From contig CAZDUX010000011.1 of NCBI GenBank assembly GCA_964508715.1, forward strand, positions 1-64,000: a stretch of DNA of 64,000 nt, read 5' to 3'. This DNA comes from an uncultured Anaerolineaceae bacterium. GTDB lineage: Bacteria; Chloroflexota; Dehalococcoidia; Tepidiformales; Tepidiformaceae. A program made the position numbers and the translations under genes. The notes below the pieces were generated by a model. It was not told the DNA's origin. It did not search any database and saw only the letters and a program-made list of their open reading frames with translations. Of the stretch, positions 55,236 through 64,000 are shown piece after piece. Within the stretch, counting starts at the first letter, position 1. Each line of letters opens with the position of its first letter.

Positions 55236-55652
55236 CTATTCGGGGAGCAGGGTGAACCGCTCGACGTGGCGCGGGCGGACACGCTCGAAGTGACGGCGGT
55301 CGAGGGTGATGATCGTATCGGCTTTGAGCCGCTCGGCGAGGGCAACGACAGAGGCGTCGGTGCCACCGAGGGGCCAGTCGGCATACTGACGCACGAGTTC
55401 GGCGATCCTGGCCCAGTCTTCGGGTTCGGGAGCGACGACTTCGAAATGCGACAGCCCGGCAAGGAATGTGGCTTCGGCCAGGGGGCCAGCCTTCCGCTCA
55501 ATGAGATACGACGCCTCGGCGACGCAGAGTGCCGGGATGATGAGCAGGAGCCGCGGGTCCTGCAGCGCTGATAGGCATGCGTGATGATGCGGTTCGTCGG
55601 CGATAACCGAAGCGATCAATGGGCCAGCATCGACTATCGCGACCGGCCCCAA
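55236..55652 (-). CDS. type II toxin VapC (PIN domain ribonuclease)
   Basis: PIN pattern LGPVAIVDAGPLIA...D..D; probable TTG start 2 nt after antitoxin stop. Confidence 0.7.
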   Translation of the reverse strand: MGPVAIVDAGPLIASVIADEPHHHACLSALQDPRLLLIIPALCVAEASYLIERKAGPLAEATFLAGLSHFEVVAPEPEDWARIAELVRQYADWPLGGTDASVVALAERLKADTIITLDRRHFERVRPRHVERFTLLPE

Positions 55653-55653
55653 C

Positions 55654-55905
55654 TCAGCCTTCCATACTCTTTTGGATATCGTCTGCCCACGATTCAGCCA
55701 GCATCTCGTGAACCTTCGAGGCGTCGACTGGCTCGCGGCTGCGTGCGACGCCCGCGAAAGGTATCTCCCGCTTCCCATTTGTCAGCCCGAAATACTGCTC
55801 GAGCGCGCGCCGAACGATCTCGGAGGAGGATAGCCGCTTCTGATGTGCATCCCGGTCGAGACGTGCTGCGAGTTCTTCAGACAGGGTGATGGTCGTTCGT
55901 TTCAT
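55654..55905 (-). CDS. ribbon-helix-helix (CopG-like) antitoxin of VapBC pair
   Basis: MKRTTITLSEELAARLDRDAHQKRLSSSEIVRRALEQYF RHH motif. Confidence 0.7.
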   Translation of the reverse strand: MKRTTITLSEELAARLDRDAHQKRLSSSEIVRRALEQYFGLTNGKREIPFAGVARSREPVDASKVHEMLAESWADDIQKSMEG

Positions 55906-59189: not shown

Positions 59190-59306
59190 CCGCGCTTATC
59201 AAGAGTGGGCAGAGGGATCCGGCCCTGCGAAGCCCCGGCAACCTGCCACCATCGGGCAAGGTGCCAACTCCGGTCTCCCGTCGCGGCGGGAGGAAGATGA
59301 GAGCGA
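59190..59306 (+). promoter_or_regulatory. SAM-I (S-box) riboswitch
   Basis: CUUAUCAAGAGUGGGCAGAGGGAUCCGGCCCUGCGAAGCCCCGGCAACC...GGUGCCAACUCC...GGAAGAUGAGAGCG aligns nearly base-for-base with the B. subtilis yitJ S-box core; P1 halves CUUAUC/GAUGAG. Confidence 0.88.
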
Positions 59307-59494
59307 CTCCGCTCCCCACCATTACGGCCCACGCGGAAACGAGGAGTACCAGGATGCCGTCCTCATTGGGCCGTATGGTCATGCGCTAGCCCCTCGCCGA
59401 AGGGGCTTCCCGCTATCCACCCCCGATCCGCACCGATTTTGCGCGTGCCCTGCCGCACCCGCCATCCCGTGCCCATCGAACGCGGAGCATGACC

Positions 59495-60748
59495 ATGTCC
59501 TATGCAACTGCCCTTCGCTGTCGCGAATGTCATCGCGAATACCCACTCGCCGCACAGCATGTCTGCGAGTTCTGTTTCGGCCCCGTCGAAGTCACCTACG
59601 ACTACGACGCTATCCGCCAGGGAGTCACGCGCGAGCGTATCCAGGCCGGCCCGGCCAGCCTCTGGCGGTACCGCGATTTTCTCCCGGTCGACCCCGACGC
59701 CGCCATCGACATCGGCGCCGGCTTCACCCCGCTCGTTCGTGCGCGAAACCTCGGCAAGGCGCTCGGCCTGAACAACCTCTACATCAAGAACGACACGGTG
59801 AACCCAACCTGGTCGTTCAAGGACCGTGTGGTTGCGGTGGCCGCGAGCCGCGCCCGCGAGCTTGGATTCGAGAAACTGGCCTGCGCGAGCACGGGCAACC
59901 TGGCCAACAGCGTCAGCGCCCACGCCGCCGCCGCCGGGATGGAGGCCGTTGTCTTCATCCCCCACGACCTCGAGGCCGGCAAGGTCGTCGGTTCGGCCAT
60001 CTACAATCCGACACTCGTCAAGGTTCGCGGCAACTACGACGCGGTGAACCGGCTCTGCGCGGAGCTCTCTTCCACCTATCCCTGGGCGTTCGTGAACGTG
60101 AACGTGCGGCCCTACTACAGCGAAGGCTCGAAGACGCTCGGGTTCGAGGTCGCCGAGCAGCTTGGCTGGCGGGCGCCGGACCACTGTGTCGTCCCAATCG
60201 CCAGCGGTTCGCTCTTCGTGAAGATCAAGAAGGGGTTCGAAGAGCTGGCGAAGGCGGGCCTCATCGAGCCAACGAAGACGCGCATGAGCGGCGCGCAGGC
60301 CACCGGCTGTTCGCCGGTTGCTACCGCGTGGGAGGAGGGTTCGATGAACTTCCGGCCCCAGCGCCCCGACACCATCGCCAAGTCGCTCGCCATTGGCAAC
60401 CCGGCCGACGGCTACTACTCGCTCGTCCAGCTGCGCGATACGGGCGGCGCCTGCGGCAACGTGAGCGACCCCGAGATCGTGGCCGGGATGAAGCTCCTTG
60501 CCGAGACCGAGGGCATCTTCGCCGAAACTGCCGGCGGCGTGACCGTTGCCTCGCTCAAACAGCTTGCCGAACAGGGTAGAATTGGGCCCGACGAGGTGAC
60601 GGTGGCGTTCATCACCGGGGCCGGCTTCAAGACCATCGAGGCCGTCACCGGGGCGCTCGAGCCCCCGCTCGAGATCGACGCCACCGTCAGCAGCTTCGAG
60701 CACGCCTTCGAGGCGCGCGGCGCGGCTGCACTCGTGGGTGCGAACTAA
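59495..60748 (+). CDS. threonine synthase homologue (PLP fold-type II) with N-terminal C4 zinc ribbon; candidate MetM-like homocysteine synthase
   Basis: CRECH...CEFC zinc ribbon; NPTWSFKDR PLP-Lys motif, CASTGN, IGNPA, TGAGFK as in ThrC; start chosen at second ATG, 7 nt after GGAG. Confidence 0.85.
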   Translation: MSYATALRCRECHREYPLAAQHVCEFCFGPVEVTYDYDAIRQGVTRERIQAGPASLWRYRDFLPVDPDAAIDIGAGFTPLVRARNLGKALGLNNLYIKNDTVNPTWSFKDRVVAVAASRARELGFEKLACASTGNLANSVSAHAAAAGMEAVVFIPHDLEAGKVVGSAIYNPTLVKVRGNYDAVNRLCAELSSTYPWAFVNVNVRPYYSEGSKTLGFEVAEQLGWRAPDHCVVPIASGSLFVKIKKGFEELAKAGLIEPTKTRMSGAQATGCSPVATAWEEGSMNFRPQRPDTIAKSLAIGNPADGYYSLVQLRDTGGACGNVSDPEIVAGMKLLAETEGIFAETAGGVTVASLKQLAEQGRIGPDEVTVAFITGAGFKTIEAVTGALEPPLEIDATVSSFEHAFEARGAAALVGAN

Positions 60749-61014
60749 TGCCCGAACGGAGTGGCCCATCCATGGCGACCAATCGCGTCCGCTTCACCTT
60801 TCCCGAAGAGCAGATCAAGGAACCGGTGATCTACCGCATCGGCCATGAATTCAACGTCATCACGAACGTCCGCATGGCCGACGTCGATGAGCAGACCGGC
60901 TGGGTGCTGCTCGAAATCGAAGGCGAACCCGCCGAAATCCAGCGCGCCATCGCCTGGGCGCAGGAACATGGCGTTCGCGTCGACCCCGTGGCCGGCGACA
61001 TGGTCGAGGGTTAG
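60748..61014 (+). CDS. stand-alone NIL-domain protein (MetN C-terminal-like ferredoxin-fold domain)
   Basis: TAATG coupling to upstream gene; AIAWAQEHGVRVDPV resembles MetN C2/NIL domain (AIAWLQEH.V.VE). Confidence 0.6.
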   Translation: MPERSGPSMATNRVRFTFPEEQIKEPVIYRIGHEFNVITNVRMADVDEQTGWVLLEIEGEPAEIQRAIAWAQEHGVRVDPVAGDMVEG

Positions 61015-61068
61015 ACCCATCCCCTGCTGAGTGCCGTCCCTGGCGACTCGCAACCAGCAACCCGCATC

Positions 61069-61368
61069 TTGCAACTCCGGAGGACTTCCGTGCCCGTTAC
61101 TGTCCGTATCCCGCAGCCCCTTCGCAACCTGACCGGCAACCAGCCGACCGTGCCCGCCGGTGGCGACACCCTCGCCGCCTGCATCACCGACCTCGAAGCG
61201 AAGTACCCCGGCTTCCGTGAGCGGATGATGGATGACGGCGGCCAGCTTCGCCGCTTTGTCAACGTTTATGTCAATGGCGACGATGTGCGCTTCATCGATG
61301 GCCTCGCCACGGCGCTCAAGGATGGCGACGAGGTCAGCATCGTGCCGGCGGTTGCGGGCGGAGCGTAG
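61069..61368 (+). CDS. MoaD/ThiS-family sulfur carrier-like protein (C-terminus ...AVAGGA)
   Basis: About 93-99 aa beta-grasp pattern (VNGDDV..DG..T.LKDGDEVSIVPAVAGG); probable GTG start at 61090 after GGAGGA RBS. Confidence 0.65.
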   Translation: MQLRRTSVPVTVRIPQPLRNLTGNQPTVPAGGDTLAACITDLEAKYPGFRERMMDDGGQLRRFVNVYVNGDDVRFIDGLATALKDGDEVSIVPAVAGGA

Positions 61369-61376
61369 GAGCCGCG

Positions 61377-62399
61377 CTACCGCCGCCGGTCGGGCCAGGC
61401 GAGGACGAGCCAGATCGCGAGCAGTCCGCCGGCAATCACGATGAGCGGCGAAACCGTATGGCCGCCTCCACGCTGAACGAGGACGCCCGAACCCGTCGAT
61501 GGTGCGAGCGGTGTCGCGTTCGCGCCGGGCGTGCGAGCACCTGCCGCCGTGCTCATGGGGGTTGGGCTCGGCGCCGGCGTGGGGGTCGCGGTTGGCTCGG
61601 CGGGCTTCGCGGGCACGACCGTGGGTGTCGGTGTCGAGACGATACTCGGCCGGCTCCCGGACGTGCCCGTAGACTGCGTCGCGGTTGGCCTGGGCCCCTC
61701 AGTCGCGGTCGGGGTGGGGGTTTCGAACTCCTGGTTCTCATCATCGAGGTCTGGCGGCACGATCTCGATGCGGTAGGTCGCGTTCTCCTTCGCCGGTTGC
61801 AGGACGACGACGAAGAGCGGGCAGACGAACGTGTCGCCCGGAGCGATGGTGTAGCGGAGCCCCGGGCCGGTGAGTGTCGCGGGCCCGCTGCAGAACTGGC
61901 CAACCTCCGCAGCGGTGCGCCCGCCTGCGACGATGTCGATATCGGAGCGCTGGCAGCCACTGACATTGCACGTGGCGGTCGCGTTCGCTTCGAGCGAGCC
62001 CAGGTCGACCCGGATCGGGTTCGAGCCGGTGTTGGAGACGCCGAGGAAGTAGACACACCCGGCGTAGGGATAGCCGTTGCCCACATTCAGCTCGACGGTG
62101 GCCGGCTGCATCGTCGCGGCACAGGTGACGAGCGGGGGCATCGGCGGCACGAGGTCCGGGCCGGCGTAGACGTACGTGTCGAGCGCATCGGTCGGGCCGG
62201 CCGCTGCAAACGAGACGATCTCGTAGCCGCCGCTCCCGCCCGGAGTGCCCACGACGAAGGGCGTGGTGTTAGCCCGGTTGTAGATGCTCCATGTCGCTTC
62301 GAGGGGGGCGGCCGAACCCGCCTGGAAGCCGACACCGCCGACGAGCGAGACAACGATCGCGATTGCGGCCGCGAGGGTCCAGCGCACTGATCGCGTCAT
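61377..62399 (-). CDS. secreted protein with SipW-cognate-like N-terminal signal, Pro/Thr-rich linker and C-terminal TM anchor plus RRR tail
   Basis: N-terminus MTRSVRWTLAAAIAIVVSLVGGVGFQA resembles the TasA/CalY-type signal (ALGLALVGGGT); C-terminus GGGHTVSPLIVIAGGLLAIWLVLAWPDRRR. Confidence 0.5.
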   Translation of the reverse strand: MTRSVRWTLAAAIAIVVSLVGGVGFQAGSAAPLEATWSIYNRANTTPFVVGTPGGSGGYEIVSFAAAGPTDALDTYVYAGPDLVPPMPPLVTCAATMQPATVELNVGNGYPYAGCVYFLGVSNTGSNPIRVDLGSLEANATATCNVSGCQRSDIDIVAGGRTAAEVGQFCSGPATLTGPGLRYTIAPGDTFVCPLFVVVLQPAKENATYRIEIVPPDLDDENQEFETPTPTATEGPRPTATQSTGTSGSRPSIVSTPTPTVVPAKPAEPTATPTPAPSPTPMSTAAGARTPGANATPLAPSTGSGVLVQRGGGHTVSPLIVIAGGLLAIWLVLAWPDRRR

Positions 62400-62527
62400 T
62401 GGCGTGCCCCGCCCTTCCCGGTCTGCCGCGGGAGCCCGGCGGGAGCTCTCCGCGGCAACCGGGATGCACACCTCCGCGGGTCGAGCGCGGATGTGGCGTG
62501 CGTCTCGAGTACGCCCTGCTCCGCCAT

Positions 62528-63589
62528 CTACCTGCCACCTCCGCCCGGGTTGGGAGTCGAAGGGAACTTGAGGATGCCGATGGATTCGCCCGGCTTATTG
62601 ACCACTTTGGGCGTTGGCATCGCCGTTGGCGTGCTGGTTGGCCGGGGTGTGGCCGTTGGCTCGGCATCGATGGACTTCGCGGCTTCCTCATCGTTCGATG
62701 GCGAGGCGTCGACGGTAACGATGGGGTTGCTGGTGCTGGCTGGCGGGCGGGCTCCCAGCGTCGTCCGCAGCGGCGCGGCACAGCTGGCGGGCTTTGGAAC
62801 AGCGACCGTGCCCGCGCCCAGCGGGCCGCTGCCGGAGACCTCCATGTATTTCGCGGTCACATTCTCGGTGGGGATGCCCGTGCCGGTGAGGGTGATGCTG
62901 AACTCGAGGGCGTTGAACGGGCCGTGGCCGGCGTTGGTGGCCTTCCACTTCACGAGCTTGCCCGCGGTATCGGGCGCGTAGGCCCAGGATGAGACGGGAT
63001 TCGTTCCCGGTGCGGGGTGCGTCTCGCTTTGCACCACGGCGTTGAGGGCGGGGTCGAAGCAGACGGGGAGCGCGATGTAATCGATGTTCTTTGCGCACGT
63101 TGGCCCGGCGATTCCCCCGCCCGAGAAGGTGTACGTGTAGGTCGTTTTCCCGCCTGCTTCGACCGGCGCCGACTTCAGGGCGATGACGTAGGGCTGGCAG
63201 GCGAACGAGCCGGTGCCGACGGAGCTCGAAAGCTGGAGCTCCTGGTACCAGAGGGTGTTCGCCGATTGCATGCGGACGAGCGCGAAGACGGAGAGCGCGA
63301 GCCCGAGGACGAGCGGCACCGCCGCGACCTGTGTCCGCCGTGCGAGCCGCCGGCCGGCCCCCGCGGGGATGCCGAAGCGCCCGGTGCGGTGGGTTCGCAG
63401 CCGCCGGGGCATGGGTGCCGGCGAGGGAGCGGTGGCAGCCGCCGGGGCAGCCGCATCGAGCGTATGGAGCGGAGCGCCGCCGTTCGTGGCATCGATCGTG
63501 AAGCCGGGGTCGGTTGTCCAGGTGGCATCGATGAGGAAGCCATCGGGCAGGGCCAGGTGCTGGAAGGGGTCGCGGAACGTGTCGTTCAT
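62528..63589 (-). CDS. secreted/anchored protein with SipW-cognate-like signal region (...RRTQVAAVPLVLGLALSVFALV...), Thr/Pro-rich C-terminus
   Basis: ATGA overlap with upstream signal peptidase gene; alternative internal start at 63412 (MPRRLRTHR) would give a classical signal peptide. Confidence 0.5.
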   Translation of the reverse strand: MNDTFRDPFQHLALPDGFLIDATWTTDPGFTIDATNGGAPLHTLDAAAPAAATAPSPAPMPRRLRTHRTGRFGIPAGAGRRLARRTQVAAVPLVLGLALSVFALVRMQSANTLWYQELQLSSSVGTGSFACQPYVIALKSAPVEAGGKTTYTYTFSGGGIAGPTCAKNIDYIALPVCFDPALNAVVQSETHPAPGTNPVSSWAYAPDTAGKLVKWKATNAGHGPFNALEFSITLTGTGIPTENVTAKYMEVSGSGPLGAGTVAVPKPASCAAPLRTTLGARPPASTSNPIVTVDASPSNDEEAAKSIDAEPTATPRPTSTPTAMPTPKVVNKPGESIGILKFPSTPNPGGGGR

Positions 63590-64000
63590 TGTGTCCGTCC
63601 CAACAGCTCGTTGAACTTGATGGGGATCCAGCCGACCTTGGGGAAGCGGCCGATGTACGAACCGATGAGCTGCTTGTCGGTCACCGGCATCAGGTCTTCG
63701 GTATTGTTGTTGTCGCCCTTGAAGACGAACTGGCGCTCGCCGTTCTCGCTCTTCTGGATGGCGACGACGCGGTGGAGGACGCGCTGGCGGTTGGGCAGTT
63801 CGTAGAGAATGATGTCGCCGACCTTGACGGTATCGGGGTCGACGCGGCCGACGAGGACGACGTCGCCCTGGTTGATGCGCGGCTCCATGGAGTGGCTGGG
63901 GACGAAGGCGGGCCGGTAGCCGAAGAAGCCGAAGCTGAACCAGAAGATGCCGAGGGCGATGACGGCGGTGAGTACCCAGGCGACCGATGGGAGCCGGAAG
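63586..64000 (-). CDS. signal peptidase I, ER/archaeal (SipW-like, S26B) type; N-terminus runs off window
   Basis: Frame continues upstream of the ORF-track Met (…FWFSFGFFGYRPAFVPSHSMEPRINQGDVVLV…): catalytic Ser in SHSMEP box, His in VLHRVVAI box (Ser/His dyad of ER-type SPases), GDNN box. Confidence 0.7.
   Translation of the reverse strand, partial: FRLPSVAWVLTAVIALGIFWFSFGFFGYRPAFVPSHSMEPRINQGDVVLVGRVDPDTVKVGDIILYELPNRQRVLHRVVAIQKSENGERQFVFKGDNNNTEDLMPVTDKQLIGSYIGRFPKVGWIPIKFNELLGRTQ

Follow-up and report, generated by a model that had tools for sequence, protein, structure and literature searches.

The genes at the edge of a Dehalococcoidia-class Chloroflexota contig probably belong to an operon for an AbpX-type surface fibre

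We analysed a stretch of 64,000 nucleotides (nt) from an uncultured Anaerolineaceae bacterium (assembly GCA_964508715.1, contig CAZDUX010000011.1, positions 1 to 64,000; placed by GTDB in the class Dehalococcoidia, family Tepidiformaceae), referred to here as the window, and report on a signal peptidase gene and two genes for secreted proteins that lie on the minus strand at its edge. These are the last three genes (the 3' part of C, followed by D and E) of a five-gene operon, A-B-C-D-E. An exact look-up of the D protein returned public contigs, one of which (L001) was identical to the reverse-complemented window along 11,473 nt (0 mismatches) and added 3,494 nt past window position 64000. In the L001 sequence, genes A (302 amino acids, aa) and B (259 aa) precede C; both of these probable shaft subunits, as well as two thirds of peptidase C, fall outside the window. 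Public records list A, B, D and E as 'hypothetical' and C only as 'signal peptidase I'. The G+C content of the window was 65%. The features of the locus, in the order in which the operon is read, are as follows.

L001:856-2635, just beyond the window: genes A and B.
L001:2692-3494, beyond the window: N-terminal membrane domain of C, CPBP-like by its predicted fold.
63586..64000, minus strand: 3' end of gene C, encoding residues 269-405 (137 residues) of 405 aa, with the last transmembrane (TM) helix and the S26B catalytic domain.
63694..63891, minus strand: catalytic span of C, with Ser305, His344, Asp364 and Asp370.
63889-63891, minus strand: Ser305 of C, in SHSMEP.
63772-63774, minus strand: His344 of C, in LHRV.
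63712-63714, minus strand: Asp364 of C, in KGDNN.
63694-63696, minus strand: Asp370 of C, invariant in homologues.
63586..63589, minus strand: overlap (ATGA) of the C stop with the D start, a sequence arrangement that implies translational coupling.
62528..63589, minus strand: gene D, an open reading frame (ORF) of 353 aa with a cytoplasmic extension, a signal anchor, a donor-strand motif, a predicted beta-sandwich and a Pro/Thr-rich tail.
63343..63589, minus strand: cytoplasmic extension of D, about 85 residues ahead of the signal anchor.
63203..63253, minus strand: donor-strand motif of D, LWYQELQLSSSVGTGSF, residues 113-129, with predicted cleavage after ...SANT.
62795..63196, minus strand: predicted beta-sandwich body of D, residues about 132-265, with conserved Cys.
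61377..62399, minus strand: gene E, 340 aa from ATG 62399, with a signal peptide, an AbpX-like core, a Pro/Thr linker and a putative sorting tag.
61755..62291, minus strand: AbpX/TasA-superfamily core of E by profile comparison, residues about 37-215, with NGYPYAGC...NTG..PI...LQPAKENATY.
61380..61517, minus strand: tripartite tag of E, comprising ATPLAPSTGSG, a 12-aa spacer, a TM helix (~20 aa) and RRR, conserved in orthologues.

C is a polytopic protein of 405 aa in which a membrane domain is fused N-terminally to an S26B peptidase. A preliminary description of this stretch, made from its letters and ORF translations, had recognised at the window edge the boxes of a Ser/His signal peptidase, a reading frame that continues upstream off the window and a stop overlapping the start of the next gene, and all three observations were borne out. 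The fragment contained ...FVPSHSMEP...RVLHRVV...FKGDNNN..., its frame was open from 63999 to the TGA at 63586-63588 and ran past the edge, with the full 405 aa supplied by L001, and the overlap with D spanned the four nucleotides listed above. Ser305, His344, Asp364 and Asp370 were invariant both in an alignment of close homologues (21/21) and among diverse fused peptidases of bacteria and archaea (68/68); about 58 homologues of C were near full length. The spacings of these four residues (39/20/6) are those of S44/H83/D103/D109 in yeast Sec11. The model for archaeal and endoplasmic reticulum (ER)-type signal peptidase I, TIGR02228, was passed by the fragment (91.4 bits) and by full-length C (88.3 bits; cut-off 51.85), whereas scores with the bacterial P-type model TIGR02227 (44.8 and 41.9 bits, respectively) fell below its cut-off of 47. 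Thus C is an ER/archaeal-type S26B Ser/His signal peptidase and not a LepB-type enzyme, and the LepB-like Ser/Lys dyad, which the preliminary description had named as an outcome that would refute its reading, does not apply.

The membrane domain of C was examined through a predicted structure and through conservation. An AlphaFold2 (AF2) model of C had nine long TM helices and a C-terminal helix, with a mean predicted local distance difference test score (pLDDT) of 66-95, mostly 81-95, for the blocks spanning residues 11-250. The predicted fold of the eight-helix N-terminal domain matched that of the CAAX/CPBP proteases (Rce1, SpdC). Across 68 homologues, E137 and R140 were conserved in 100% and N125 in 93% of sequences, along with several Pro, Gly and Trp residues; E137-x-x-R140 sits in TM helix 4. 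At that place active CPBP proteases carry EExxxR, and they have HxxxN in TM7 (PMC11980579). No His of the membrane domain reached 80% conservation among the 68 homologues of C, and motifs 2 and 3 (FxxxH and HxxxN/D) are for that reason taken to be absent. H117 was conserved in the Chloroflexota clade only and occupies a loop position.

The two proteins encoded ahead of C have a common layout, in which a signal peptide is followed by (A/S)Y(T/S) and then LW(Y/F)E(K/D)LT...(T/S)(T/G)xLD, with the further motifs N.YP.(Y/A)GC and N.(G/A).(V/L)P.H and a C-terminal QWNE. The N-terminal donor-strand motif reads L-W-Y-E-K-L-T-L in A and L-W-F-E-K-L-T in B. Searched against PDB sequences, a profile built from Chloroflexota A and B proteins only found AbpX (9sj2_C, E=2.3e-11, residues 2-161 of 163) and did not reach TasA. 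A broader subunit profile (A2) found AbpX with greater significance (9sj2_C, E=6e-17; 9rhp_A, 1e-10) and also TasA (8aur_A and 5of1_A, ~2e-5). By these profile comparisons A and B are homologues of AbpX within the TasA superfamily, and they are the probable shaft subunits. The Chloroflexota A and B proteins additionally have an invariant His123, Gln195 and His197 (in VPxH and GCQxH) together with 4-8 Cys, features that AbpX and most other relatives do not share. These invariant His/Gln and Cys residues may give the clade a metal site and disulfides of its own.

The D protein contains ...AAVPLVLGLALSVFALV... followed by SANTLWYQELQLSSSVGTGSF. Its donor-strand motif, L-W-Y-Q-E-L, has the acidic residue moved by one relative to A and B, and it was placed in register with xWSETLSLSATISTG, the N-terminus of mature AbpX. 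An hhalign comparison of the D family with A2 (probability 92.7, 29 columns) was restricted to the signal region and this motif. A model of the D body built with 15 sequences (pLDDT 84.2) was a ten-strand beta-sandwich in which the first ~20 residues, corresponding to the donor strand, had low confidence; the body is thus predicted to be a generic beta-sandwich, and not an AbpX fold or TasA jelly-roll. Homologues of D form a small family and were always encoded immediately 3' of C. The cytoplasmic extension is a variable feature of this family: other homologues have one of 60-100 aa (e.g., P0063-P0065 and P0071-P0076), while D of L004, L006 and L169 lacks it and starts right at the basic n-region, and an internal Met at residue 60 of the window protein is a possible alternative start. 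In the D orthologues at L171:3715-4893 and L172:7347-8303, thrombospondin type-3 (calcium-binding) repeats replace the plain Pro/Thr-rich tail.

The ORF track gave E as 61377..62471, from an upstream GTG, and the ATG at 62399 is the likelier start. From that start E begins MTRSVRWTLAAAIAIVVSLVGGVGFQAGSAAP and ends ...LAPSTGSGVLVQRGGGHTVSPLIVIAGGLLAIWLVLAWPDRRR. When aligned by hhalign, the E family (A7) matched the A/B family (A6) with a probability of 98.5 (E=1.9e-15, 191 columns) and A2 with a probability of 97.4 (E=1.3e-11), and on this profile evidence E is a paralogue of A and B. It has neither the donor-strand motif nor the QWNE end, and its mature N-terminus, ...W-S-(L/I)-Y-x-R-A-N, is not amphipathic in the AbpX register. 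Orthologues of E form a small family, with about 30 cluster representatives out of 1.84 billion reaching E<=1e-10, and E, where present, was always the final gene of the cassette.

The C-terminal tag of E orthologues has the consensus G(E/A)(K/R)TPG..TP(I/L)(A/P)P-x-(T/S)G(S/T)G, followed by a spacer of ~10 residues, a TM helix and a basic tail. The same type of tag ends unrelated proteins of 428, 468, 780 and 1598 residues (P0109-P0113), one of which (P0110) has an isopeptide-forming fimbrial domain. The LPXTG_anchor model TIGR01167 matched the sibling tag of P0111 (17.1 bits; cut-off 15.9) and did not match that of E itself. Because it occurs on unrelated proteins, one of which passes LPXTG_anchor, the tag would serve these bacteria generally as an LPXTG-like sorting signal, and it is most simply read as a sortase signal. 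As an observation apart, this tag type, which closes with R(K/R)RR after the TM helix, looks like a Chloroflexota variant of LPXTG with an extra conserved GE(K/R)TPG box, which NCBIfam models mostly miss.

Several claims of the preliminary description concerned these two secreted proteins. It had noted Pro/Thr-rich stretches in both, and these were found in the tail of D and the linker of E. The TasA-like signal regions that it saw in both proteins held for D, which has a TasA/AbpX-type N-terminus, and did not hold for E, which lacks the motif and whose likeness to TasA is that of any hydrophobic signal peptide; TIGR04088, the model for the SipW-cognate signal, did not match the N-terminus of either protein. 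The TM helix and RRR tail are indeed present in E, where they turned out to be part of the tripartite LPXTG-like tag common to unrelated surface proteins. Both had been suggested as possible subunits of a TasA/camelysin-like fibre or surface layer; a TasA-like fold is tenable for E, which has a TasA-superfamily core by profile, but not for D, with its generic beta-sandwich body, and PF12389 matched neither.

The A-B-C-D-E operon can be regarded as a self-contained cassette, because its gene order recurs amid unrelated flanking genes. The order, including the 4-nt C/D overlap, was repeated in at least seven divergent cassettes with differing flanking genes, and the overlap was called in L004, L006, L169, L170, L171 and L172. 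A complete A-B-C-D-E order was present in L004/L009, L006, L169, L171 and L172, while L170 had A-B-C-D without E and L007/L008 represented a shorter form. Cassette flanks were unrelated, except for thrC-like/NIL/ThiS neighbours kept in the close relatives L169 and L170. A search of metagenomes for further close cassettes yielded three close relatives and no more, each on a short contig. Besides D and E, no protein of the 64-kb window had a donor-strand motif or C-terminal tag, and a promoter and terminator scan of the operon gave nothing that exceeded the shuffled background.

Beyond these close relatives, fused peptidases were associated with AbpX-type genes across taxa. ORFs of the AbpX type were present at 91 of 105 fused-peptidase loci, compared with 3 of 64 loci that had a short SipW-like peptidase only, and the ORFs directly upstream of fused peptidases encoded detectable A/B homologues with the same motifs. 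Such loci were found in Chloroflexia, Anaerolineae, Clostridia, uncultured 'Bacilli/Tenericutes' metagenome-assembled genomes (MAGs), Bathyarchaeia, other Thermoproteota and Desulfurococcaceae. In gut and rumen Clostridia, 'Bacilli/Tenericutes' MAGs and several archaeal lineages, fused CPBP-like/S26B peptidases accompanied by 1-6 tandem AbpX-type genes were common (example loci are L017, L025, L037, L041 and L069), and L086 had two fused peptidase genes.

We consider it likely that the locus is the 3' half of an operon for a surface fibre of the AbpX type (TasA superfamily), assembled by donor-strand complementation, in this Dehalococcoidia-class member of the Chloroflexota. In the mechanism that we propose, the four structural proteins A, B, D and E would be exported via N-terminal signal peptides, and C would cut one residue ahead of the conserved Trp, a site placed by reference to the mature N-terminus of AbpX. 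The cut would free an amphipathic N-terminal strand (x-W-aromatic-E-x-L-T-L...) able to enter the jelly-roll of the next subunit, and A and B would in this way polymerise into the shaft, as their homology with AbpX and TasA structures suggests. Since E combines an acceptor core, without a donor strand, with an LPXTG-like tag, it would be the strand-accepting base of the fibre, probably acceptor-only and anchored to the cell. Conversely, D has a donor strand and a non-AbpX body and so would donate only; it would cap the distal end, probably as a donor-only tip or TapA-like cap, or possibly as an adhesin. The CPBP-like domain of C would act as a non-proteolytic partner in substrate selection or control, as a covalent version of the SpbR-SpsB and SpdC-SagB pairs described below.

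Certain results weigh against parts of this interpretation. Single-sequence searches of the PDB with A or B gave nothing meaningful, an E profile used alone had no match in the PDB, and the jelly-roll fold of A, B and E is predicted from profile homology only. The polarity of the fibre, with E at the base and D at the tip, is likewise deduced from the parts list of the operon, as are the acceptor-only and donor-only roles themselves. Mature A and B had isoelectric points (pI) of 5.06 and 4.76, respectively, both with 7.3% Asp+Glu, and their relatives ranged from pI 4.1 to 4.7 with 7% to 16% Asp+Glu; members of the AbpX family have a pI of ~4 and about 15% Asp+Glu, properties tied to calcium-dependent assembly (10.64898/2026.01.04.697558). 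Because A and B are less acidic than that family, calcium dependence may not apply to them. With regard to anchoring, a regular-expression search, the one method used here, found no TLxTC sortase-like motif in a plausible ORF of the 64-kb window, and no Pfam sortase was listed in the gene tables that were available for seven cassettes. As for the membrane domain of C, its Glu-Arg spacing is i, i+3 with a single Glu, one residue shorter than EExxxR; a profile of the domain matched no CPBP chain, and indeed no chain at all, in the PDB; and PF02517 matched one of 50 domain members (E=0.095). The link of this domain to CPBP proteins thus comes from its predicted fold only, which is the sense in which we call it CPBP-like.

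We regard the CPBP-like domain as most likely non-proteolytic, a partner that would position the peptidase on this class of substrates or gate its action on them. A more specific proposal, which we offer tentatively and think rather unlikely as a whole, is that the domain is functional in recognising AbpX-type prepilins through its intramembrane Glu/Arg and then gates their cleavage, holds the freed donor strand as an assembly platform or provides a second site for C-terminal processing. If true, it would, together with SpbR-SpsB, suggest that CAAX-like proteins and signal peptidases became partners in ancient times and across domains of life.

The rival that survives best, although we judge it improbable, goes further and takes the domain for a second active sorting protease similar to the myxosortase MrtX, which would cleave the E tag and make C a bifunctional processor of N- and C-termini. 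The fold does match Rce1 and SpdC, Glu137 and Arg140 are fully conserved in TM4 at the site of EExxxR in CPBP proteases, and E bears a C-terminal tag built like the one that the active CPBP protease MrtX removes, from a motif, a TM helix and an Arg-rich end (PMC11980579). However, N125, E137 and R140 were the only potential catalytic side chains to reach 80% in the 68 homologues, with no His among them, and fused peptidases occur in cassettes without an E-type protein, namely L170, archaeal loci and the minimal locus of Pyrodictium abyssi. Moreover, the presence of the tag on large unrelated proteins, one of which passes the LPXTG-anchor model, points to a sortase.

Still less probable is a canonical TasA/camelysin (PF12389) locus in which the peptidase would be an ordinary SipW orthologue, the whole being directly equivalent to tapA-sipW-tasA of Bacillus subtilis. 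The order of TasA motifs is present (W..(E/D)...TG.LD, then N.YPG, N.G and QWN), and the broad profile reached TasA as described above. Relatives encoded beside fused peptidases had weak matches to PF12389, of which one exceeded the cut-off (27.4 bits), and TIGR04088 matched a relative from Clostridia (L017, 29.1 bits; cut-off 19). On the window operon itself, however, these models failed: PF12389 matched none of A, B, D and E, even with the threshold relaxed to E<=1 to 10, TIGR04088 did not match their N-termini, and scans of Pfam and NCBIfam with the four proteins, at full length and as N-terminal pieces, assigned no family. The Chloroflexota-only profile led to AbpX and not to TasA, and C scored 56-60 bits with the SipW equivalog NF046067 against a cut-off of 190, so that it is not a SipW orthologue. 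The 405-aa polytopic peptidase also tracks AbpX-type subunits, which short SipW-like peptidases do not. Finally, that C is a housekeeping signal peptidase beside unrelated secreted or surface proteins, with no fibre involved, would fit the generic annotation that signal peptidases often receive and the lack of a Pfam or NCBIfam family for D and E, but it is highly improbable given a synteny and 4-nt coupling kept across divergent genomes with unrelated flanks, the strong co-occurrence of fused peptidases with AbpX-type genes in bacteria and archaea, and the homology of A, B and E to a protein with a solved filament structure.

The AbpX-type fibre that we favour places the locus in a system that is already known. 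A preprint of January 2026 defined, within the TasA superfamily, a clade named the AbpX family, with members in Thermoproteota, Bacillota and Chloroflexota. The loci of this family encode a structurally distinct, dedicated signal peptidase I with ten TM helices, minor subunits and proteins predicted to form tips, and those of bacteria add SLH or LPXTG anchors (10.64898/2026.01.04.697558). The present operon resembles such loci (that of P. abyssi AbpX, PDB 9sj2/9rhp, being the reference) in its homologous subunits, its dedicated TIGR02228 peptidase with about ten TM helices and its putative minor, tip and anchor subunits. It differs in that the subunits of this clade, at 230-300 aa, are of greater size, are rich in Cys (4-8 residues), are less acidic and have clade-specific invariant His/Gln, and in that the candidate anchor, a paralogue that has no donor strand, carries an (I/L)APSTG tag. 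Chloroflexota members and the ten-helix peptidase were part of that description, and the locus adds another member to the family. The one feature of the locus that is possibly without an earlier report is the CPBP-fold identity predicted for the membrane domain of the peptidase: the terms 'CAAX' and 'CPBP' do not occur in the text of the AbpX preprint (10.64898/2026.01.04.697558), and the full-text literature that we searched, the coverage of which was incomplete and is not proof of novelty, held no description of a CPBP-like peptidase fusion.

The preliminary description had likened the locus to tapA-sipW-tasA, and this comparison was right in essence, in that a dedicated S26B peptidase accompanies fibre subunits of the TasA superfamily, and wrong in detail, in that the closest family is AbpX and the peptidase is a fusion. 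As in B. subtilis, the ER-type Ser/His peptidase is encoded in an operon with a donor-strand-exchange subunit, and D would, like TapA, donate a strand from a protein with a different beta-sandwich body. Unlike C, SipW has about 190 aa and no CPBP-like domain; TasA models miss the window proteins; and here there are two probable shaft paralogues and a separate, putatively anchored base, in a different gene order.

A further parallel is found in the tat-fimbriae of haloarchaea (TafA/C/E), which are abolished by deletion of tafD (PMC11821415). TafD resembles C as an S26 peptidase that has membrane and extracellular modules in addition and is dedicated to a donor-strand fimbrial subunit, which it is needed to process, but its peptidase domain is N-terminal, with four TM helices and another kind of extra domain, and the tafi system uses Tat export and a DUF5305 partner, TafG, whereas no DUF5305 gene is present in this cassette.

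The predicted architecture of C can also be compared with two-protein arrangements of Staphylococcus aureus, in which SpbR, a degenerate CAAX-like protein, binds and inhibits the signal peptidase SpsB (PMC12260438), and SpdC-SagB forms a second pair of a CAAX-like protein and a hydrolase (PDB 6u0o). In both pairs, as in C, a degenerate CPBP-fold protein is combined with a membrane-anchored extracytoplasmic hydrolase, which in the case of SpsB is a type I signal peptidase. By contrast, the two parts of C are one polypeptide, the peptidase is ER-type and not P-type, and there is no detectable sequence similarity. SpbR inhibits its partner, an effect that the domain of C need not share. Another signal peptidase homologue tied to surface fibres is SipA/LepA of the sortase-pilus islands of Streptococcus pyogenes (PDB 4n31), which is described as lacking the catalytic residues and serving as a chaperone for sortase-built pili; unlike SipA, C retains the Ser, the His and both Asp residues.

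TasA-superfamily fibres are emerging as a cross-domain mode of building biofilm matrices, and the locus offers a well-delimited list of parts from the Chloroflexota, with two probable shaft paralogues, a putative donor-only subunit, a putative acceptor-only anchored subunit and a dedicated peptidase, that leads to a testable model of fibre polarity. A predicted CAAX-fold domain with invariant Glu/Arg would, in addition, tie the AbpX-type peptidase to the way in which CAAX-like proteins were recently found to regulate signal peptidase in S. aureus, and bears on how a peptidase may become dedicated to particular substrates.

Two neighbouring features of the window were also identified. Next to the cassette, an S-adenosylmethionine (SAM) riboswitch (RF00162, 79.9 bits) at 59193..59303 on the plus strand lies upstream of 59489..61368, an interval that encodes a threonine-synthase-like PALP protein (59489..60748), a NIL-domain protein (60748..61014) and a ThiS/MoaD-like protein (61069..61368). 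The set looks like a SAM-controlled, sulfur-carrier-dependent homocysteine/methionine module, and it is this PALP/NIL/ThiS trio that also adjoins the cassette in L169 and L170. Further away, at about 55236..55905 on the minus strand, a ribbon-helix-helix protein and a PIN-domain protein form a pair resembling a VapBC-type toxin-antitoxin system, according to the Pfam labels of the identical contig (L001:11590-12259).

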